The notes beneath the pieces are model-generated. The model was not told the DNA's origin. It did no database searches and saw nothing but the letters and a program-made list of their open reading frames with translations. A program made the position numbers and the translations under genes. This document shows, piece after piece, positions 3,807 through 26,085 of a stretch of DNA of 64,000 nucleotides (within the stretch, counting starts at the first letter, position 1; each line of letters begins with the position of its first letter). The stretch comes from FCB group bacterium (GTDB taxonomy: Bacteria > Zixibacteria > MSB-5A5 > GN15 > JAAZOE01): the NCBI GenBank assembly GCA_024231695.1, contig JAAEQF010000118.1, positions 1,086 through 65,085 on the forward strand, written 5' to 3'.

Positions 3807-4760
3807 TTATTCGTCGTCGGCCGAGGATTTTTTCAGTGGCAGCGAATATACTGCGGTGAGCCGGAGATTATAAGCACTGCCCAACTGCTCTTCGTTGAAA
3901 TGCTGATAGATCGGCATTTCAAAATAGGTCTGCAGACGCAGTTTACCGGGGATGGCCTGATATTGGATTCCCGGCGTCAGCCATAATTGATGGCGGCCGG
4001 TCATGGCAACATCGACTCCGTTCTCAGTGTCCCGCCTCCGAATCATTCCGGAAAGACCGAGCGACAGATCAAGTTTTTCTTTTAAATGAATACTGGCCGA
4101 GGCCAAATAGGAAAACTGGTTGCCGAACTTATAATCGTCATAAGCGCTGGTCAGAATATAAGTTCCCGAGACAAAGAAATCGACGGTTTCGAAACCCTGA
4201 TAATAGGAAAGCGACCAATGATAATCCCATGATCCTGTTCCCGGCTGCAATTCCTGGGGCAAAAGCATGCCCTCATCGGTGGAGCCGGTAGGGATTTTGA
4301 CACCGAGGCCGATTGATATCTCACGGAAGTTGACAAAACTTCGTTTCAGGGGACTGTATCGAACGATGCAGACCATATCTCCGAGTCCTGAGCTTGTCCA
4401 TTCAAAGGGCGTAGGTGATCCCAGATTGTCTTTTGATTTTGCCTTTTGTAAATAAGGCAAAATCAGACTGCCGCTGAATCCGGGCATAAAGCCGTAAGAG
4501 GCGGTTAGAGTCGTTCTTTTCCAATCGGCTTCGGTATTGACCGGATCATCGATTTTGTCCGAGCCGCAATACTTTTCGCGCGCGCATAAGTATTCATAAT
4601 GAAGACCGATTTCCAGCACATGAGGCAGGGCCGTGGTTTCGCCGGCTATACCCTGTTGAGGCACCGCCGGGGCGCAGCAGTTTTGTCCCATAGCGTATTC
4701 GGCAGTACAAATTAAAAGTAGAGCTATGGCAATAAATCTATTTATCATTTCGACTCGCAT
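3807..4760 (-). CDS. Putative outer-membrane beta-barrel protein (MetA/phenol-degradation-like transporter family?)
   Basis: Signal peptide, alternating hydrophobic beta-strand-like pattern, Gly/Tyr/Ser-rich. Family assignment is tentative. Confidence 0.45.
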   Translation of the reverse strand: MRVEMINRFIAIALLLICTAEYAMGQNCCAPAVPQQGIAGETTALPHVLEIGLHYEYLCAREKYCGSDKIDDPVNTEADWKRTTLTASYGFMPGFSGSLILPYLQKAKSKDNLGSPTPFEWTSSGLGDMVCIVRYSPLKRSFVNFREISIGLGVKIPTGSTDEGMLLPQELQPGTGSWDYHWSLSYYQGFETVDFFVSGTYILTSAYDDYKFGNQFSYLASASIHLKEKLDLSLGLSGMIRRRDTENGVDVAMTGRHQLWLTPGIQYQAIPGKLRLQTYFEMPIYQHFNEEQLGSAYNLRLTAVYSLPLKKSSADDE

Positions 4761-5147
4761 TTATGGAGTAACCCAGACTTTGATGCTGTCACGGGCTTCG
4801 CCGCCGCGATTATCGCTGACGATAGCATGCACCCAAGTCGACTTCGGAATATGTACAATACAACAATTAGTCAGCGTCAGTGTGTTGCCGCTGGGTGTAC
4901 CGGCAAAGCCCGATGAATCCGTAACCCAATTATATTGCAGGTTATCGCCATCGGGATCGCTGGCTGTAACGGTAATAAGCGAACTGTAATCAGCCACAAA
5001 AGTATCCGGCTCGGCGGTTAGTGATTCGATGATCGGCGCCTGATTGTTGGGATCAACGATATTATCGTCATCATCACCGCAACCGATCCAGACAATCAAG
5101 CCGATGAATAAAAGTAATATATATGGCAATTTTAGGGACGGTATCAT
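4761..5147 (-). CDS. Lipoprotein with Ig-like/PKD-like domain
   Basis: Start moved to the internal Met (MIPSLKLPYILLLFIGLIVWIGCG, lipobox IGC). TASDPDGDNLQYNW resembles PKD/cadherin-like folds. Abuts the barrel gene. Confidence 0.5.
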   Translation of the reverse strand: MIPSLKLPYILLLFIGLIVWIGCGDDDDNIVDPNNQAPIIESLTAEPDTFVADYSSLITVTASDPDGDNLQYNWVTDSSGFAGTPSGNTLTLTNCCIVHIPKSTWVHAIVSDNRGGEARDSIKVWVTP

Positions 5148-5172
5148 CAGCACCTTCTTTTCATAGGCTAGC

Positions 5173-5892
5173 CTATTTTTCCAGTTCAATCGGGACGGTC
5201 ACGATGGTCGTATCCGCTCCGATAAATCCAAAAGTGATTGATCCCCCCTTGAAATCTTTATCCACCGGCAAAGCAGTAGCATTGATAAGTAATTCTTCTT
5301 TCGCATCATGAACAATATCCCGAGGCAAATCGATACTTTGTACCAGTTCTCCCGAAGAATGAAGGACGACAACCTTCAGCGTATCCGGCCCGGAATTGAA
5401 AAATTCCAGTGTTGTAGAAGAATCGGATATTTTGCCGTCTTTTACTTCCCACTGCAACTTCTGAGGTGTAATCGATATGTTTTCAGGAGATTCTTTCTTT
5501 TTATAAACGTAGGCCTTGAGCCAGATGCTGTATATCTGCTGTTGTGATTCGCTAATGAAAATCTGTGTAGCTTTTTTGGTGCGTTTATGGTATCGGCCCG
5601 ATTTGAAGAGGATATCAATCGCCGCGCTGTCACCGGGAGCGATAGGATGATTAATCTGAGATACGCTGGTGCAAGAACACCCGGCTTTGATTCGATCCAC
5701 CGGCAGAGAATCCGAACCGGTATTTATCAAATAGAACCGTTGGCCGACCTCCGACTTCTGAGGTAAAAAGCCGAAATCCCATGATCGCGGCCGGATGGTG
5801 ACATTGTCGTCCTGAGCCGACGCCGGAGATAACAAACCGGCCAAGACCAAAGCAACTATCATCGAGATTGGAATTCTTTTTATTGAAGCCAT
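5173..5892 (-). CDS. DUF1573-like exported protein (Cys form, CxC motif)
   Basis: Start at the internal Met, preceded by GGAGAA. Signal peptide MASIKRIPISMIVALVLAGLLSPASA. Module WDFGFLPQKSEVGQRFYLINTGSDSLPVDRIKAGCSCTSV...PGDSAAIDILF matches my recollection of DUF1573. Confidence 0.7.
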   Translation of the reverse strand: MASIKRIPISMIVALVLAGLLSPASAQDDNVTIRPRSWDFGFLPQKSEVGQRFYLINTGSDSLPVDRIKAGCSCTSVSQINHPIAPGDSAAIDILFKSGRYHKRTKKATQIFISESQQQIYSIWLKAYVYKKKESPENISITPQKLQWEVKDGKISDSSTTLEFFNSGPDTLKVVVLHSSGELVQSIDLPRDIVHDAKEELLINATALPVDKDFKGGSITFGFIGADTTIVTVPIELEK

Positions 5893-6095
5893 CGCTTCTC
5901 CGGGCTGAGATATTCGGGCAATCCGAGTACTTTCGGAAATATATTGGACAAATTGAGCCACGGCAAGGGAATTGTTGAGGTGTTAATTCCGATTGACAAA
6001 AGTGGGAAAACAGCTACTTTATAATTATAAGTGCTTATTCCAACATTCGACGGACTTCGTTATTGGCTAATTCATTTATCAATTCAGGCGGAGTT

Positions 6096-6935
6096 ATGCA
6101 TTTGAAGATATTATTACTGGTAGCGGCCCTCTGTTTTTTCGGCGGTTTAGTTGCGGCCGAAAACGGCCTGGACCTCAAAGTCAGAATTGGCGATGAACTC
6201 GATGTTGATACTATCTGGGTCGGTTCCGAAGCCAGTTTCGATTTTTATTTCGAGAACAGCCTTGAACTGGTTGGGTTCGTAACCTATTTCCGGATTTATT
6301 CCCCGGACGAACTGGTCACCTGGACTTGGAAAGAAGGCCCTTACCGTATAGATTCGCCGGCCGACACGATCTGGAGTTACGCCACGGTGGAAGAGGGATC
6401 GCGCATGGATCTTCCCGATGTGATTTGGGACTATTATGGTCTGGGGTTAACGCAATTAAGTTTTGACGGCCTCTCACCCGATACCATTATCCTGGCCGGA
6501 GCGTCCGCCGAGACGCCACATATGAACACCGGTCCAATGGAACATAATATAACAATGCGCTTTCAGGCCTCCGGGCTATCACCGGGCGAGGTCGGCACAA
6601 TATGTGTCGATACTACGCGCAGTGGCTGAGGCTGTAACGGCCTGGTCGCCGTGGGCGACTTAACAATTGTACCGGAAGCATGGGAAATCGGCGCTAAATG
6701 CTGGCCGGTGAAAGTTTATCCGATAATGTGCGGAGATGCCAACGGCGATGGTTCAATCAATGTCGGCGATGCCGTCTTTGTCATTAATTATGTTTTTAAG
6801 AGTGGACCACCATCGGCACCGCTCTGTAGCGCCAATACTAATGGCGACAGCTCGGTCAATGTCGGCGATGCGGTATATCTGATCAATTACGTTTTCAAAA
6901 ACGGTCCACCGGCAGTTATACCCTGCTGTCCCTGA
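6096..6935 (+). CDS. Secreted protein with C-terminal dockerin-like repeats, read through an in-frame TGA at 6627-6629 (candidate selenoprotein)
   Basis: ORFs 6063..6629 and 6651..6935 share a frame and are separated only by TGA plus sense codons. ATG at 6096 follows AGGCGGAG. Signal peptide MHLKILLLVAALCFFGGLVAAE. Two NGDGSINVGDAVxxINYVFKxGPP repeats. Context is ..TTRSG-TGA-GCNG. Confidence 0.5.
6645..6659 (+). promoter_or_regulatory. Candidate bacterial SECIS-like hairpin
   Basis: GTCGCC-GTG-GGCGAC gives 6 Watson-Crick bp, extendable by G6644-U6660. It starts 16 nt after the TGA, and the loop G lies 24 nt from the U of UGA. Confidence 0.35.
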
Positions 6936-6950
6936 GGTGGGCGGTAACGC

Positions 6951-8162
6951 TTATTGCCGGAAAATGATCGACTCGCGTTCGAACCACGTTTTGCAGAAAA
7001 ACAGCGACAACACGGCCAGAACGGCATTGGCCAAGACCGCGACAAATACAAAATTCCAGGCAATCGACCCGGCGATGGCATCCTTGAGAATCAGGGTGGC
7101 GTTGACCACCGGGATTAAAGCCATCTGATAATTAATCTCCACTCCCGGTAAAAACGAAATAATGGCCGGCAGGATAATTACCATATTAAGCGCAGTAACG
7201 TAACTCTGGGCTTCTTTGAAAGTCCGGGCAAAAATCGATACGGACAGGAGAACGCCGGCAAAAATCCCGCCCAGCGGAATGATTATCAGAAGAATCAAGA
7301 TAATCGTCGGTAAATCGAAGGAGATGGCCATCATCTGACCCAATTCGCGGACGAATTCCCCGACCATATAACTGACCGAAAAAGCCATACTGACCAGCGA
7401 AAGCAAAGCGGCCACGATTCCGGTGACCAGAATGACAAGATATTTGCCGACCACGAATTCGCCGCGCGTAGCCGGTGAAACCAGCAGAGTTTCCAGTGTC
7501 CCTCGTTCCTTTTCTCCGGCAGCCAGATCAATAGCCGGGTACATGGCGCCCATGAAGCACATGATGATTATCACGTAAGGCAGCATCGGCCCCATTGTTT
7601 TACCGATCATTTTTTCCGGAGGGCTGACATTTTGACTATTAACTTCAAAGGGGGAAATATAATCGGGCGTGAGTCCCAGCTCGTTTAAGCGGGCTTCAAC
7701 TAGCAGACCGTCATAGGCGGCAAGCATTTCCTCGACTTTTTCAAAACCGATTTCCGATTTCATTTCCGCTTTATCATAGAATACATCCAGTACGGCCGAA
7801 CTTTTTTCCTCCAGAGCGGCGGCAAAGCCTTCAGGGACAGTGACCAGCACCTGATAGTCGCCTCGTTTGAGCGCCTCGGTCAGGGTCGTATCGAAATCAG
7901 CCGCTGTTTTCAGATTCAGCGCCGGAGCGCGTTCGAACATACCGCGCAAATCCTCGGGCAGGTTATCCATGCCGGTGACTACCACGGCCGATTTTTCCTC
8001 ATACAGTTTGCTGATCTGGCTGGCCATGAGCGAGGACATGCCCATCATCAATAGTGGGATAGCGGCCATGGGAATAAGCAGCATAAAAACAAGGGTGCGC
8101 CGATCACGGAGGGTATCGATCATTTCTTTCTTAAATACTGTATTGATATTGCGAAATCGCAC
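6951..8162 (-). CDS. ABC-2 type transporter permease (NatB-like)
   Basis: 403 aa. One N-terminal TM, a large extracytoplasmic loop, then a cluster of C-terminal TM helices. Immediately downstream of an ABC ATPase. Confidence 0.75.
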   Translation of the reverse strand: MRFRNINTVFKKEMIDTLRDRRTLVFMLLIPMAAIPLLMMGMSSLMASQISKLYEEKSAVVVTGMDNLPEDLRGMFERAPALNLKTAADFDTTLTEALKRGDYQVLVTVPEGFAAALEEKSSAVLDVFYDKAEMKSEIGFEKVEEMLAAYDGLLVEARLNELGLTPDYISPFEVNSQNVSPPEKMIGKTMGPMLPYVIIIMCFMGAMYPAIDLAAGEKERGTLETLLVSPATRGEFVVGKYLVILVTGIVAALLSLVSMAFSVSYMVGEFVRELGQMMAISFDLPTIILILLIIIPLGGIFAGVLLSVSIFARTFKEAQSYVTALNMVIILPAIISFLPGVEINYQMALIPVVNATLILKDAIAGSIAWNFVFVAVLANAVLAVLSLFFCKTWFERESIIFRQ

Positions 8163-8164
8163 GA

Positions 8165-8896
8165 TTATTCCTCCACGATCTTGATGAAAGCGTCTTCAAG
8201 ATTATCGGTTCCAGCCTTGGCCAGTATTTCCGCCACTGTCCCTTCCGCATACATGCGGCCCTGATGAATGATTCCGATCCGGTCACACAACCGCCTTGCT
8301 TCGGACATGATATGGGTCGAGAATATAACCGTCTTTCCCTCTGCCCGGCAGGTTTTGATGAATTCGACAATCGTCCGCGAACTCATGACGTCGAGCCCGG
8401 TGGTCGGTTCGTCGAAAACCATGGCCTGCGGATCATGCACAACCGAGCGGGCGATGGAAACTTTTTGCTTCATTCCGGTGGAAAGGGTGTCATTGCGGGA
8501 ATCGGCGAACTTGCCCATATCAAGCATCTGGAAAAGTTTTTCGGTGCGCTCTTTCAAAACCTCCGGGGTCATACCATACAAACGCCCGAAATACCGAACC
8601 ATTTCACGCGGCGACAGTCGGCCATACAACCCGGTATTGCCGGAAAGAAAGCCGATCTGGGAGCGGATTTTTTGCGGATCGGCGGCCACTTCGATATCGT
8701 TGATAGTAGCCGTTCCTGAAGTCGGTTTAAGAGCAGTGGAGAGCATGCGCAAGGTCGTCGTTTTGCCCGCGCCATTAGGCCCCAAAAGGCCATAGACCTC
8801 CCCCGGCTGACAGGTAAACGAGACTTTATCGACGGCAATGATTTTACCCCGTTTTTTGTCTTTGAATATTTTGGTCAGTTCTTTGGCCTGTATCAT
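8165..8896 (-). CDS. ABC transporter ATP-binding protein (NatA-like)
   Basis: Walker [10 protein letters not shown], signature LSTGMKQK, Walker [12 protein letters not shown]. Confidence 0.9.
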
Positions 8897-9585: not shown

Positions 9586-10116
9586 TCAGACCGTTTCGCT
9601 GTCGTAATCGACCAAGGCCATAATGTCGTAACCGGTCAGCCGGTCGCGGCCTTTGAGAAATGATAGTTCAATAAAGACGGCAATTCCGGCTACCTCTCCC
9701 CCCAGTTTTTCGATCAACCGACAAGTAGCTTTGAGGGTGCCGCCGGTAGCCAGCAGGTCGTCGAGAACGGCCACGCTGTCGCCTGAGGTTATGGCATCGG
9801 TATGAATTTCAAGGCTGTCGGTGCCGTATTCGAGAGCATACTCTTCACTGATCGTCGTAAAGGGCAGTTTCCCCTTCTTGCGTACCGGAATCAGAGGGAT
9901 ATTCAAACGATCAGCCAGCGCTCCACCCAAAAGAAAACCGCGCGAATCGATGGCGACAATTTTGTTGACTTTTTTTGTTCTCAAGTACTTTTCAATGGCG
10001 TCATAGGCCTCGCATAGAGCCTCGGGGTCGGCCAGCAAAGTGGTGATATCGCGAAAAATGATTCCCGGTTTGGGAAAATCGGGAAGGGAACGGATTACTG
10101 TTTTTAGATCTCTCAT
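9586..10116 (-). CDS. apt: Adenine phosphoribosyltransferase
   Basis: FPKPGIIFRDITTLL and the PRPP-binding VAVLDDLLATGGT motif. 176 aa. Ends with a TGA stop. Confidence 0.9.
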   Translation of the reverse strand: MRDLKTVIRSLPDFPKPGIIFRDITTLLADPEALCEAYDAIEKYLRTKKVNKIVAIDSRGFLLGGALADRLNIPLIPVRKKGKLPFTTISEEYALEYGTDSLEIHTDAITSGDSVAVLDDLLATGGTLKATCRLIEKLGGEVAGIAVFIELSFLKGRDRLTGYDIMALVDYDSETV

Positions 10117-10121
10117 GATGA

Positions 10122-10397
10122 TTACCGTATACTGAAATCTGTGAAGTTCTGAGGAGAGGGCATCTCTTCCAATTCGACGCCTGAAACTGAGGCGTAACTG
10201 GAACCAACGCGGATGATTTTAATCATGTCGTCGATGAGGCCTTTGGCACCGCAGGCTATTATTTCGACCTGCCCGGTGGGCAGGTTTTTGACGGACCCGG
10301 TCAGACCGAGTTTCTTCGCTTCTCGAAAAGTAAAGTAGCGGAAGCCAACGCCCTGCACCAATCCGCTGACTATTATACGAACTGCTTCATTTGCCAT
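10122..10397 (-). CDS. acyP: Acylphosphatase
   Basis: 91 aa with the VSGLVQGVGFRYF signature. Confidence 0.85.
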   Translation of the reverse strand: MANEAVRIIVSGLVQGVGFRYFTFREAKKLGLTGSVKNLPTGQVEIIACGAKGLIDDMIKIIRVGSSYASVSGVELEEMPSPQNFTDFSIR

Positions 10398-10905
10398 CGC
10401 GTACGAGTTCTATGGCCTTTTTAACTGCCTCCTCGGGATTGGAGGCGTGACAAACTTCGGGAAAAACATCCCATGTGACCAGTGAGACAACCGGTTTTTT
10501 CATTTTCAAGGCGAAAGCCATTTCGGAGATCGTTCCGAATTTGCCATGCAGTGAAATGAGAACATCGGCCGATTGAACGAGGATGACATTGCGGGCCTCG
10601 CCCACTCCGGTCGGAATTACGATATCGCAATAAGGGTTGGCCTTGGCGCGTTCGTTTCCGGGAATAATTCCTACGGTGCGTCCGCCGGCTTCGGAAGCTC
10701 CCTTGGCGGCCGCTTCCATAACGCCCTTCAGTCCGCCGCAAACCAACACCGCTTTTTCTTCGGCAATGGCCACGCCGACGGCATAGGCCTGATCCTTAAG
10801 TTTCTTGGCGCATTTTCCAGCCCCTATAACCCCAATATAAACGGTTTCTTTCGATCCCATGTTCCCCTCAAAACTCGCCCCTGGGTGATGTACAGCCATT
10901 GTCAT
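10387..10905 (-). CDS. TIGR00725/LOG-like (Rossmann, lysine-decarboxylase-like) family protein
   Basis: IGVIGAG...VLVCGGLKGVMEAAAKGASEAGGRTVGIIPG pattern. Confidence 0.7.
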   Translation of the reverse strand: MTMAVHHPGASFEGNMGSKETVYIGVIGAGKCAKKLKDQAYAVGVAIAEEKAVLVCGGLKGVMEAAAKGASEAGGRTVGIIPGNERAKANPYCDIVIPTGVGEARNVILVQSADVLISLHGKFGTISEMAFALKMKKPVVSLVTWDVFPEVCHASNPEEAVKKAIELVRDGK

Positions 10906-13041: not shown

Positions 13042-14049
13042 TTATTGCCTTGCTTCGGCCTTTAGCGGCCGGGTCATCAGTTTGTTCACTGCCTCGCGGG
13101 CCGGAAGATTCTCAAAAAGAACCCTGCAAACCGCGCGAGTTATCGGCATATCCACTTTGTGTCGATCGGCCAGCTCGCGCGCCGACCGGCAGGTGGTCAC
13201 TCCCTCGGCCACCATAACCATCCCGGCCAAAACCTGGTCCAGTGTTTGTCCCTGCCCGATGTGATATCCGACATATTGGTTACGGGAATGGCGAGAAATA
13301 CAAGTGGCGATCAAATCACCCACGCCCGAGAGACCGACCAGAGTCTCCGGATCGGCCCCCATGACCTGAGCCAAACGACTGATTTCCACTAACCCCCGGG
13401 TGATCAAAGCACCCTGAGTATTATCGCCGAAACCCAACCCCTGAGCTATACCGGCGGCGATGGCGATAACGTTTTTCAAAGCCCCGGCCAGTTCCACGCC
13501 GATCAGGTCGGTACTGCGATAGACCCGGAAAACAGGGTTGCTGTATATTTCCTGGGCCTTGCGTGATTTGGTCTCAGCTCCGGCGACCACAACCGTAGTC
13601 GGCAGGTGACGAGCCACCTCTTCGGCATGAGACGGTCCTGATAAAGTGACAATTGATTCACTATCAATACCGGCCCAGTCGTCGGCGATTATTTGCGAGA
13701 CACGCCTAAGTGTTCCCTGTTCGATACCCTTACTCAGATTGACAATCAAATCGGGCCGGCCGCCGGAATTTGCCAGTTGGCGGCAGACACCAGATGTTTT
13801 TTGTGTCGGCACGGCAAAAATGACAATATCCGCGCCCGCGACCGCTTCGGCCAGATCACCGGTCAACGAAATGGATTCGTTGATCGGTATCTCCGGAAGC
13901 TTGTCCGGATGTTCACGTTTTTCTTTTATCAGGGCCAGTTCGTCGGGATCGAATTCCCACATGAGTATATCGGCACCGTTTTCCGCCAGCAGGTTGGCGT
14001 TGGCAATCCCCCATGATCCGGCGCCCAATATTGTAATTCTATCGCTCAC
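13042..14049 (-). CDS. gpsA: NAD(P)H-dependent glycerol-3-phosphate dehydrogenase
   Basis: ILGAGSWG dinucleotide fold, GLKNVIAIAAG, overall GpsA layout. Overlaps plsY by 4 nt. Confidence 0.9.
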   Translation of the reverse strand: MSDRITILGAGSWGIANANLLAENGADILMWEFDPDELALIKEKREHPDKLPEIPINESISLTGDLAEAVAGADIVIFAVPTQKTSGVCRQLANSGGRPDLIVNLSKGIEQGTLRRVSQIIADDWAGIDSESIVTLSGPSHAEEVARHLPTTVVVAGAETKSRKAQEIYSNPVFRVYRSTDLIGVELAGALKNVIAIAAGIAQGLGFGDNTQGALITRGLVEISRLAQVMGADPETLVGLSGVGDLIATCISRHSRNQYVGYHIGQGQTLDQVLAGMVMVAEGVTTCRSARELADRHKVDMPITRAVCRVLFENLPAREAVNKLMTRPLKAEARQ

Positions 14050-14681
14050 TGTGAAGCTTTCCTCAGTTGGAATCGGTTTTCGGTGCCGGAGGCAAGCCTT
14101 TTGATGTTCTGGCGATGTGTGTATAAAATGAAAGCCGCAATAATTGCCGAGACGACCAGAAACGAGCTTTCTATCGGCCAGCCCAGAACCAGCTTCTCGA
14201 CCCAGATTATCACCGCCAGAGTTACTGCGCCGACCATCGAACCGAGAGATATATAGCGAAACGCAAAAACTACAATCATGGAAACGCCAACGGCAATCAA
14301 GGTTTCAATAGGCATCAGGCTGATAAACACGCCCACGGCCGTATTGACCCCTTTGCCGCCGCGAAAGCCCAGATAAGGCGAATATGTATGTCCCAAAACG
14401 GCCAGAATTCCAGCTATCAGGGCAGCATTGGAAAGCGATACCGGCCATCCGGCCTGATAAAAAGATGAGGTTATAAGAACCGCCGCCGCCCCTTTGCCGA
14501 TATCTCCGACAAAGACGAACATCGCCGGTATCGGCCCGGCCAACCGCCAGACATTGGTGGCTCCGACATTGCCCGATCCTTTCCTGCGGATATCTCCCTG
14601 CCCGGCCAGATAGCCAACAATCAGGGCAAAAGGGACACCGCCCATGAGGTAGGCGATGAAAAGGTAAAGATAGAAACTCAT
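14046..14681 (-). CDS. plsY: Glycerol-3-phosphate acyltransferase PlsY
   Basis: GSGNVGATN motif in a polytopic membrane protein of 211 aa. Confidence 0.9.
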   Translation of the reverse strand: MSFYLYLFIAYLMGGVPFALIVGYLAGQGDIRRKGSGNVGATNVWRLAGPIPAMFVFVGDIGKGAAAVLITSSFYQAGWPVSLSNAALIAGILAVLGHTYSPYLGFRGGKGVNTAVGVFISLMPIETLIAVGVSMIVVFAFRYISLGSMVGAVTLAVIIWVEKLVLGWPIESSFLVVSAIIAAFILYTHRQNIKRLASGTENRFQLRKASQ

Positions 14682-14703
14682 GCGTTCTTACCCGGTATGA
14701 CGG

Positions 14704-15003
14704 TCACTTAATTCGGGAATGCAAAATCCACTTGCCACCGGACATCGTCAGCCCCCGATCATGATACATTTCATATACGGCGCCGTCGGATGTTTCCACT
14801 CGAAAACAATTACGGTGACGGCGCATTCGCCAGGTCTTCCTTTTTGGCGCTCCGGCCGGAAAACCCCAATCCGGCCAAACCGCTATTATTTCACGTATGG
14901 CCAGATCGCGGCCGTTCCATCGGAACGACACCGGATCGCCATTATCTTCGCTTCGGACAACAGCAATCTCTTCAGATATAAACTGTGCCGTTTGGCTGCT
15001 CAT
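14704..15003 (-). CDS. Small basic hypothetical protein
   Basis: 99-aa ORF in an operon position upstream of plsY. No motif confidently recognised. Confidence 0.4.
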   Translation of the reverse strand: MSSQTAQFISEEIAVVRSEDNGDPVSFRWNGRDLAIREIIAVWPDWGFPAGAPKRKTWRMRRHRNCFRVETSDGAVYEMYHDRGLTMSGGKWILHSRIK

Positions 15004-15425
15004 TAGATACTATCGGGAACTGCCTGCAATGAGTCAGGAATATCCTCGACTTCGGGAAGGATCGGTTCCTGCCCGAGAGCTTCCTGAATCAATACCAGAA
15101 TATCAGCCCCTTCCTCCTTGTCGATTGTTTTATCGGCCATAGCATTCTGGAATGTCTGGGCCATCTCCTGGATATCCGGAGCGGCTACTTCTTTATTTTT
15201 GATGGCCGCCTTGAGATCACTCATTATCGTGCGAACGTTGTCTTCGGTGTATCCTTCGGGAAGATTGGCGACTATTTCGGTTTCGGTGTTGTCGATCAGA
15301 AAGTCAGTACCCGCTTCCAGAATTTTGTCCTTGTTAACCCAGAGTAAAACGCCGCCAATAATTATCAGCAAAACGACAACCCCGGCAATAATCAAGCCGA
15401 TAGTACATCCTTTGGACAAAGCCAT
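15003..15425 (-). CDS. Membrane-anchored acidic hypothetical protein
   Basis: Single N-terminal TM (GLIIAGVVVLLIIIGGVLLWV) followed by an acidic helical tail. Confidence 0.4.
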   Translation of the reverse strand: MALSKGCTIGLIIAGVVVLLIIIGGVLLWVNKDKILEAGTDFLIDNTETEIVANLPEGYTEDNVRTIMSDLKAAIKNKEVAAPDIQEMAQTFQNAMADKTIDKEEGADILVLIQEALGQEPILPEVEDIPDSLQAVPDSI

Positions 15426-25266: not shown

Positions 25267-26085
25267 ATGACTTCCAAATATTGTTTTTCAATTCTGGCGG
25301 CGCTGTCGATTCTGCTCCTATTTGCCATCGGTGGCTGCGGTAAGGACCCGGTATCGAGCCAGGACGATATTCAAACGATAAACGGCGACAGCCACGTTTT
25401 CTTCGGCGCGGAAGCAACCGATTCCATAGTCAGTTTCGACTTTGGGTACACTCCGCAAAGCTCAAAAATCAGTCATATCTACTGGCTTCATAACACCGGC
25501 GATGATTCTCTGAATATAGTCAATATCAACCCCGGCTGAGGCTGTACCAAGGCTCCGTTGGAAAGAACGGAGATTGCTGTCGGCGACAGCGTTAAGCTGG
25601 AAATATATTTTTCTACCTCAACGTATCGGGGAACGATAGTCAAACGACCGAAGATTTGTGTTGACCGCGATAGCCTGTGCCGCTATATAGAATTGAGGAC
25701 CAATGTAGTTGCCAAACCAGATTCGACCTATCCACTAGTCATTTCCCCTTACCGATTAATGCTAATGAAAACCGACAGTGTCGATATAACCTATATTGAG
25801 TTTCATATTTCCAACCGCTCCGACACGAGTATCTTTATCCGTCCTATTGACTATCCCAAAGACTACTTTGAGTTATTATTACCACCTGAAACAGTGCCGG
25901 ACTCATCGATTTCAGGTCACCTGACTCTGAATGGATTGGGGCTGCAAAATTCATTTAATAAATCGTTGACCTTTGAATGCGATGATGCTGTGCAATCGCG
26001 GTTCACCATTCCAATCGTCCGGCAAATTCTCGGTCAAGGCGAAGTCAATGCCGCCATCAATCTCGATCCGGAATGCCCTGAATAG
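25267..26085 (+). CDS. DUF1573-like lipoprotein read through an in-frame TGA at 25537-25539 (candidate selenoprotein, U-G-C in place of CxC)
   Basis: ORFs 25225..25539 and 25558..26085 share a frame. ATG at 25267 follows GAGG. Lipobox LLFAIGGC. The read-through gives one continuous module: SFDFGYTPQSSKISHIYWLHNTGDDSLNIVNINPG-TGA-GCTKAPLERTEIAVGDSVKLEIYF. Confidence 0.6.
25553..25572 (+). promoter_or_regulatory. Candidate bacterial SECIS-like hairpin
   Basis: CTCCGTT-GGAAAG-AACGGAG has a 7-bp perfect stem and a 6-nt loop. It starts 14 nt after the TGA, and the loop G residues lie 23-24 nt from the U of UGA. Confidence 0.4.

Follow-up and report, generated by a model that had tools for sequence, protein, structure and literature searches.

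Most catalogued bacterial selenoproteins are redox enzymes that carry selenocysteine (Sec, U) in place of a catalytic Cys. In the canonical bacterial SECIS/SelB system, of which E. coli fdhF is the type, an in-frame UGA has a hairpin directly downstream of it in the coding region, the selenocysteine insertion sequence (SECIS; Zhang and Gladyshev consensus, per PMC13188914). The published criteria for bacterial SECIS elements (bSECIS) are an apical loop of 3–9 nt, a stem of 4–16 bp, a distance of 16–37 nt from the UGA, a G in the first two loop positions and a folding energy of −7.5 kcal/mol or lower (PMC13188914). DUF1573/OS_HP2 is already listed as a selenoprotein family, and 'UGC' is a catalogued motif of DUF1573 and TlpA-like selenoproteins (PMC9312934, PMC13188914). 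Here we describe a gene at positions 6096–6935 of a 64,000-nt stretch of DNA (the window; contig JAAEQF010000118.1 of assembly GCA_024231695.1, positions 1,086–65,085, forward strand) from an FCB group bacterium of the Zixibacteria lineage. With the canonical system this gene has in common an in-frame UGA and an adjacent hairpin in the coding region. It is continuous across a conserved TGA that is followed by a TGA-specific, bSECIS-compliant hairpin. The window uses the normal genetic code, and the lineage is rich in a bona fide UGC selenoprotein. We propose, with a probability of roughly 0.78, that TGA 6627–6629 is a selenocysteine codon read with the help of the downstream hairpin. The product, a cohesin-like module joined to a dockerin, most likely represents an uncatalogued family of selenoproteins, made by way of the recoding mechanism already known from bacteria.

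One continuous gene across a conserved TGA

The gene is made up of two open reading frames (ORFs), 6063–6629 and 6651–6935, that share a frame and are split only at TGA 6627–6629, as the initial annotation had claimed. We delimit the complete candidate selenoprotein gene to 6096–6935 on the plus strand, with 279 codons that include UGA-178, followed by the true stop (TGA 6933–6935). These limits rest on the shared-frame ORFs, on full-length homologues and on an orthologue described below. The preferred start is ATG 6096, with GGCGGAG just 5′ of it, and the database gene call for this locus (P0001, 177 aa) uses the same start. The in-frame UGA at 6627–6629 (plus strand), the proposed selenocysteine codon, encodes residue 178 within the motif S-G-U-G-C-N-G and reads SG-U-GCNGLVAVGDLTIVPEAWEIGAK in the read-through product. 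It falls in a loop after strand 166–172, with the conserved Cys of 'C-I-D-S' on one side and the conserved 'C-W-P-V' strand on the other.

When the read-through product was used as a query, 294 homologues were found. More than 20 of them, 270–310 aa long and from FCB-group and Zixibacteria metagenome-assembled genomes (MAGs), align at 93–100% coverage and are unbroken from the N-terminal domain into the dockerin. A deep profile search gave 544 family representatives at E ≤ 1e-30, some with several copies of the N-terminal module. In no case does the N-terminal domain end at the position of the TGA; all aligned homologues run on into the dockerin. The expected fusion to dockerin repeats was therefore found in the more than 20 full-length relatives, whereas a Cys, also expected at the TGA position, is not conserved there. 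Two tandem paralogues of the family on a JGI metagenome contig (L021, 1501–2310 and 2351–3160) encode 269 aa each and have no TGA.

One homologue, P0002, is 84% identical to the focal protein and is likewise called as 177 aa. We compared its DNA (L001), which comes from an independent Logan assembly (ERR10503137) and has 88% nucleotide identity to the focal gene. L001 keeps the same TGA and an open frame beyond it, and has no further stops or frameshifts. Across the 37 codons downstream of the TGA, 29 are identical, 7 differ synonymously and 1 differs non-synonymously; upstream, the corresponding counts are 115, 34 and 28. This comparison shows that the downstream part of the gene is under purifying selection. 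The longest mismatch-free run of the alignment measures 50 nt (−12 to +37) and spans the TGA and both hairpins described in the next section; at this divergence, we put the chance of finding no mismatch between the TGA and the end of the hairpin at ~0.01–0.02 (our own estimate).

A recent nonsense mutation, in a pseudogene or as an assembly or sequencing error, would explain a single stop in an otherwise intact gene at a position that is not Cys-conserved in relatives. The same TGA is present, however, in an independent assembly that has diverged by 12% at the nucleotide level with no other stop or frameshift, and the dockerin is intact as judged by Pfam. Neutral drift should have made about three-quarters of the downstream changes non-synonymous (our own estimate), as opposed to the 7 synonymous and 1 non-synonymous changes seen. 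Conservation of the TGA together with this 7:1 synonymous excess therefore excludes a sequencing error or a decaying pseudogene, and we rejected both; a recent nonsense mutation in any form is highly improbable.

TGA could also have been reassigned to an amino acid throughout the genome (translation table 4 or 25), for which there is nothing beyond the in-frame TGAs themselves. Stop usage in the 46 long ORFs of the window refutes this: TGA is the commonest stop (19, compared with 16 TAA and 11 TAG) and also ends the focal gene at 6933–6935. As TGA terminates 19 of the 46, the genetic code is not reassigned, and just two TGAs lie inside genuine coding frames of the window. The probability that remains for reassignment is negligible.

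A TGA-specific hairpin and the DUF1573 selenoproteins

The proposed SECIS hairpin, GGUCGCC-GUG-GGCGACU, occupies 6644–6660 on the plus strand. It has 7 bp, a triloop and a C-G closing pair, places its loop 21 nt after the UGA and folds with −9.9 kcal/mol. Its core stem-loop, GTCGCC-GTG-GGCGAC, lies at 6645–6659; a G·U pair (6644·6660) extends it to 7 bp, and the whole is the local minimum-free-energy structure. A proximal mini-hairpin, AGGCUG-UAA-CGGCCU (6629–6643, plus strand), overlaps the A of the UGA, forms part of the minimum-free-energy fold and is identical in L001. The −9.9 kcal/mol hairpin is likewise carried by both the window and L001.

The window holds a second gene of this kind, a DUF1573 'UGC' selenoprotein at 25267–26085 (plus strand; UGA 25537–25539), which we refer to as the sister gene. 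Its hairpin, CUCCGUU-GGAAAG-AACGGAG, has its loop 20 nt after the UGA and folds with −9.4 kcal/mol. The claim in the initial annotation that both loci have a hairpin at nearly equal spacing held up: the distance from the loop G to the U of the UGA is 24 nt at the focal locus and 23 nt at the sister locus, and the gap from UGA to loop is 21 and 20 nt, respectively. Both hairpins fall within the published bSECIS limits.

We assessed how often such hairpins arise in the background. Among the 2,351 TGA trinucleotides of the window, 3.8% qualify as bSECIS and ~2% reach −9 kcal/mol or better. Only the TGAs at 6627 and 25537 combine a qualifying hairpin with a genuine coding frame on both sides. Eight other TGA candidates were rejected as antisense to genes or as terminators after true stops. 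We also examined the equivalent site in five TGA-free homologues (P0003, P0005, P0015, the tandem paralogue of P0015, and P0018) and found no qualifying hairpin; the best fold reached −5.1 kcal/mol, and the others −3.8 kcal/mol or weaker. Although its layout is that of the canonical system, the focal hairpin does not resemble E. coli SECIS elements in sequence and matches no Rfam family. We propose that it is bound by SelB.

The assignment of the sister gene rests on known families. A Pfam DUF1573 match (PF07610) spans its TGA, and the NCBIfam model for the OS_HP2 (seleno)protein (NF041425) gives a match below its curated cutoff (E 1.3e-13). A Cys stands opposite its U both in orthologues (P-G-C-G-C-T) and in a Cys-type DUF1573 paralogue (G-C-S-C-T) encoded at 5173–5961 on the minus strand, divergently from the focal gene (Pfam E 2.1e-14; BLASTP against the sister gene E 2e-18). 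Two helices, at ~25552–25574 and 25575–25591, make up its SECIS.

We ran the codon-degenerate pattern P-G-UGA-(G/S)-C-T-x-A-P-L on a collection of species-representative genomes and obtained at least 120 matching stretches. Among the matches listed (80), about half are labelled Zixibacteria and most of the others are 'uncultured Ignavibacteria-class' MAGs that have the same gene sets. At least five closed or near-closed chromosomes contain a match. Open frames with at least 40 codons upstream and at least 100 downstream surround 120 of 126 pattern sites, and the Sec-type gene is present in at least 120 species-level genomes. In these Sec-type DUF1573 genes the synonymous sites of the peptide A-V-G-D-S are nearly frozen (GCU 114/115, GUC 105/105, GGU 97/119, GAC 118/119, AGC 110/120) and other codons vary freely; the Cys-type orthologue P0123 has the same peptide in codons that break the hairpin.

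The frozen codons belong to a two-helix element. In helix 1 (positions 16–23 paired with 30–37), the apical loop opens with a G and lies ~21 nt from the UGA. Helix 2 (39–45 paired with 49–55; GCUGUC-GGU-GACAGC) is nearly invariant, and its loop, at 42 nt, exceeds the 16–37 nt range of the published bSECIS model. Across 81 sequences, 87.6% of the cells are paired, as opposed to 32–64% when the partners are slid, and 56 cells are changed on both sides, compared with 24 in shuffles. The covariation score of 0.160 (0.091 in shuffles) was reached by 0 of 500 shuffles. The lineage therefore maintains a structured, working UGA-recoding signal after a conserved UGA at the Cys position. A covarying SECIS in this position across the lineage is in turn strong indirect evidence for a working Sec system. 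The element could also serve as a seed for a lineage-specific search for selenoproteins.

Several further features of these genes and their hosts were recorded. The Gly codon before the Sec UGA (L108–L227) is GGC in 71 genes, GGG in 40 and GGT in 9, and never GGA; after the UGA, GGA is the commonest (56 of 119). This suggests a 5′ context constraint that disfavours A immediately before the UGA. Three DUF1573 genes lie within a single 20-kb stretch (L024; GCA_008633255.1, SWCD01004834.1), at 9695–10468, 13513–14208 and 14272–15015. One is of Cys type; the other two are of Sec type, with TGA at 9968 and 14473, and both are split by gene callers. P0127, a DUF1573 orthologue on an 870-bp NCBI contig, has W at the Sec/Cys column (PG-W-GCT); the annotator may have read a TGA there with another genetic code. 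The catalogued genome closest to the window is the Zixibacteria MAG AC1.147 (70% PBP2 identity). For PBP2, dockerins and Sec-type DUF1573, some of the matches closest to the window come from the many MAGs labelled 'uncultured Ignavibacteria/Ignavibacteriales' (binchicken; L003, L026–L047 and others), and these taxonomic labels may be unreliable.

We then compared the focal site with the DUF1573 genes. The proteins have in common a secreted Ig-like or β-sandwich architecture, an origin in the same genome and phylum and an identical G-U-G-C motif, and both genes follow the UGA with adjacent hairpins, the second of which has a 6–7 bp stem, C-G closure and a G-initial triloop. They differ in that DUF1573, unlike the focal family, has abundant Cys-form homologues, and in that the focal SECIS is without the 23-nt helix 1 of DUF1573. 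It is because this helix is missing that the focal triloop stands 21 nt from the UGA, and not 42 nt as in DUF1573.

A covariance model built from the two-helix element was used to scan the whole window with filters off. The sister gene scored 66.8 bits; the Cys paralogue reached 14.4 bits, on sequence only and with broken pairs. The best match outside the DUF1573 genes is the focal site itself (6627–6665; 7.9 bits, E ~0.9 window-wide), in an alignment that begins at the UGA, deletes helix 1 and fits helix 2 to the focal hairpin so that 7 of 7 pairs form. In this alignment the focal element resembles a minimal form of the lineage SECIS, with a 6–7 bp stem, C-G closure and a G-initial triloop containing GU. 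Sec-type DUF1573 genes use a different codon register for the hairpin than does the focal gene.

At the protein level, the focal product has no Pfam or NCBIfam match to the DUF1573 domain and by profile is not a family member. Remote homology between the two families, which would supply a Cys counterpart, was looked for and not found (hhalign probability 0.7%). The U-G-C motif occurs in the focal protein and at the DUF1573 Sec site, and the motif alone does not establish family membership.

The initial annotation had also treated a shared 13-mer, GGCTGAGGCTGTA, as a recoding context. It does occur exactly twice in the window, at 6624 and at 25534 (25534–25546), as had been noted. This spelling is found in just 6 of the 120 Sec-type DUF1573 genes of related genomes, in which GGCTGAGGATGCA (33) and GGCTGAGGCTGCA (20) are the commonest contexts; the 13-mer is for this reason not a nucleotide signal, and its two window copies also led us to reject it as a common genomic word. 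It is one codon spelling of G-U-G-C-(T/N) only. For two sites with one and the same peptide, the codon usage of the window gives a chance of ~1% that all codons and the following base agree, which, as a post hoc figure, is mildly surprising. The peptide motif itself is uncommon: C-x-C occurs once in the 16,245 residues of the window's other proteins, and a TGA-Gly-Cys is therefore not a random nonsense context. E. coli SelD (L229, 3966–5009) has G-C-G-C-K near its N terminus (HGAGCGCKISP), a likeness to the G-C/U-G-C tetrapeptide at the level of the motif only.

Focal DNA 6624–6659 also resembles that of the Cys-type P0123 (L105, 1001–1741) in two in-frame blocks that are collinear and have a gap of 21 nt between them. 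The first is GGC TGN GGC TGT A; the second, AAC..CTG..GCC GTG GGC GAC, reads AAC..CTG(+GTC)GCCGTGGGCGAC in the focal gene and AACCACCTGGCCGTGGGCGAC in P0123. A gapped-alignment test gave p ~0.01 for this likeness, post hoc, and single 12-mer matches are common by chance. Coincidence, convergence and a transplanted patch are all possible explanations, and a common origin of the focal and DUF1573 Sec loops is unproven. One origin that we consider, and regard as unlikely, is that a structural, non-enzymatic module without a Cys ancestor gained its Sec site de novo, through a minimal 'UGA-GGC-UGU plus helix-2 hairpin' cassette related to that of DUF1573. Such a cassette could have come by a small recombination patch or by tight convergence on what the SelB of the lineage recognizes. 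A portable Sec cassette, if real, would be a new way for selenoproteins to originate.

A predicted secreted protein with a cohesin-like module and a dockerin

The N terminus, MHLKILLLVAALCFFGGLVAA followed by ENG (6096–6158, plus strand), looks from its sequence like a Sec-type (export pathway) signal peptide with a predicted cleavage site; in the AlphaFold2 model, a hydrophobic helix at residues 2–17 is followed by V-A-A. The model, computed from the family alignment, has a mean predicted local distance difference test score (pLDDT) of 85.9 and a predicted template modelling score (pTM) of 0.73, and shows a β-sandwich at residues 24–206 with a helical dockerin after it. We compared the sandwich (6165–6713, plus strand) with the PDB using Foldseek. 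Cohesin modules account for the top 14 matches and for most of the top 50, the best being 5lxv_C (E 5e-7, probability 1.00), and target-normalized TM scores range from 0.55 to 0.71. The N-terminal module, which the initial annotation had labelled an unknown domain, is accordingly modelled as a cohesin β-sandwich fold. No cohesin family matched the focal protein in Pfam at E ≤ 0.1, and the dockerin is the only domain that Pfam recognizes.

The dockerin is of type I and lies at 6732–6893 (plus strand), with two Ca-binding repeats, DANGDGSINVGD and NTNGDSSVNVGD. The PF00404 match covers residues 213–266 with 38 bits (cutoff 22.9; E 1.9e-9), which bears out the earlier description of two dockerin-like repeats; in the model, helices span residues 223–235 and 256–268. 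The product therefore reads as a signal peptide, a cohesin-like module and then a type I dockerin. In the model a single β-sandwich includes both LVAVGD, the strand that follows the TGA, and the conserved C-W-P-V strand, so that a stop at the TGA would remove its last strands.

This domain order bears on the reading of the TGA as a genuine stop, in which the product is a secreted cohesin-like protein of 177 residues, with the dockerin ORF (6651–6935) translated separately from GTG 6651 or not at all. Standard gene callers agree with this (P0001 and P0002 are both 177 aa), and purifying selection downstream would also be compatible with independent translation of the second ORF. Yet GTG 6651 sits in the apical loop of the hairpin, and we found no Shine-Dalgarno-like sequence upstream of it, in keeping with what had been claimed for this start. 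A dockerin made without a signal peptide would remain in the cytoplasm, truncation would cost the modelled sandwich its final strands, and not one aligned family member terminates at this point. We consider a genuine stop very unlikely.

The closest structural parallels are the cohesins and type I dockerins of cellulosomes (PDB 5lxv, 4dh2, 2ccl; PF00404), with which the focal protein has fold and dockerin profile in common. Some proteins with the cohesin-like module are also scaffoldin-like in that they carry it in multiple copies. The focal module differs from cellulosome cohesins in having only ~10% sequence identity and no Pfam cohesin match, and its host is a Zixibacteria-lineage bacterium rather than a cellulolytic Firmicute. 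In the literature search and in review tables, we found no selenocysteine in any known cohesin or dockerin protein, and no paper linked Zixibacteria, cohesins or dockerins with selenoproteins.

Zixibacteria-lineage MAGs carry type I dockerin tails in very large numbers, with at least 539 confirmed loci and many different N-terminal domains (L025–L104; P0142–P0283). The cohesin-like module is also present in multi-copy proteins of 740–920 aa. Together, the dockerin expansion and the multi-copy modules suggest a cohesin–dockerin surface assembly system in the Zixibacteria phylum. We found no other Sec-type dockerin gene in 80 related loci, just 26 of which reached an upstream stop.

Under the selenocysteine reading, the mRNA hairpin at 6644–6660 would recruit the SelB·GTP·Sec-tRNA(Sec) complex, and UGA-178 would be decoded, presumably as Sec, to give one secreted protein of 279 residues. 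The precursor would be exported through the Sec pathway, and the mature protein would join a surface assembly of the cohesin–dockerin type, in which its cohesin-like module may bind a dockerin. The Sec-Gly-Cys loop would be exposed after the eighth strand of the cohesin-like sandwich. By analogy with other UxC/UGC selenoproteins, the U-G-C loop might, tentatively, be a redox-active selenenylsulfide or a soft-metal-binding site. That it makes a covalent selenenylsulfide link within a cohesin–dockerin surface assembly is speculation.

The UGC TlpA-like disulfide reductases and other UxC selenoproteins (PMC13188914) resemble the focal product in Sec-x-Cys spacing, in export and in a presumed redox or metal-binding role. 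In those proteins, which are either enzymes with a thioredoxin fold or transporters, Sec stands in for a catalytic Cys; the focal motif instead lies in a variable loop of a structural binding module. The candidate is thus unlike typical selenoproteins: a secreted cohesin-like/dockerin scaffold with Sec in a variable surface loop that lacks a conserved Cys counterpart, from a phylum that is uncultured and has an essentially undescribed selenoproteome. Confirmation would extend the use of Sec to extracellular assembly modules. It would also mean that genes of this kind escape searches based on Cys/Sec pairs and are broken in two by standard gene callers.

Selenocysteine weighed against leaky read-through, and neighbouring genes

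UGA is the leakiest bacterial stop codon. Read-through might accordingly be independent of selenium, whether programmed or leaky, with a near-cognate tRNA (for example Trp or Cys) inserting a residue at low efficiency, perhaps stimulated by the hairpin. No Cys homologue marks the UGA position as catalytic, which fits such a mechanism. On the other side, the residue falls within U-G-C, a known selenoprotein motif; the geometry is that of a SECIS, and the 21-nt loop spacing matches helix 1 of the DUF1573 SECIS of this lineage. The same genome, moreover, holds a bona fide member of a selenoprotein family, and leakage at a low level would leave mostly a truncated and probably unfolded domain. We judge selenium-independent read-through to be quite improbable.

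A number of observations weigh against selenocysteine. The first concerns the missing Cys. Nearly all selenoproteins have Cys homologues (PMC13188914), and the focal family, which has no Cys counterpart, is for this reason atypical. No Cys aligned to UGA-178 is conserved among the homologues; the column is P/T/A/N, in a variable loop. The family consensus around it is C-I-D-S-x-F-I-P-P-x-G-x-F-x-F-x-D (an IPPxG loop), the nearest subclade is variable at the U column, and P0003 has a deletion there. A Cys stands within two residues on either side of the U column in just 2 of 93 modules (P0028 and P0190; 'PP-C-G'), and the register of these two is ambiguous because the loop in the window is two residues longer.

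The second concerns the hairpin. Its fold z-scores are modest (−1.2 to −1.5), and Rfam SECIS families gave no match at gathering or permissive thresholds. The covariance-model match at the focal site is not significant as a blind search and is partly due to the shared UGAGGCUG. The UGA and the SECIS-type hairpin are both kept in L001, which is the sole TGA-bearing orthologue found; GTDB representatives and two metagenome scans yielded no more. With only two TGA-bearing sequences, the focal hairpin therefore has no covariation support of its own.

The third concerns the machinery. None of selA, selB, selD or tRNA-Sec is encoded in the 64-kb window, and neither tRNA-Sec nor SelA, SelB or SelD was found in 1.24 Mb of related loci (ARAGORN; tblastn with E. 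coli proteins). The negative result in the related loci is uninformative because they sample well under 1% of each genome.

Set beside these points, the proposal of programmed recoding made in the initial annotation is supported by the continuous homologues, by L001, by the hairpin found only with the TGA, by TGA as a normal stop and by the DUF1573 sister gene.

The focal gene is flanked (window 3807–5961 and 6951–8896) by a cluster of genes for exported proteins on one side and by an ABC-2 transporter pair on the other. The exported-protein cluster comprises an outer-membrane channel-like Phenol_MetA_deg protein, a Big_9 Ig-domain protein and the Cys-type DUF1573 paralogue. Within it, ORFs 4761–5189 and 5173–5961 overlap by 17 nt.

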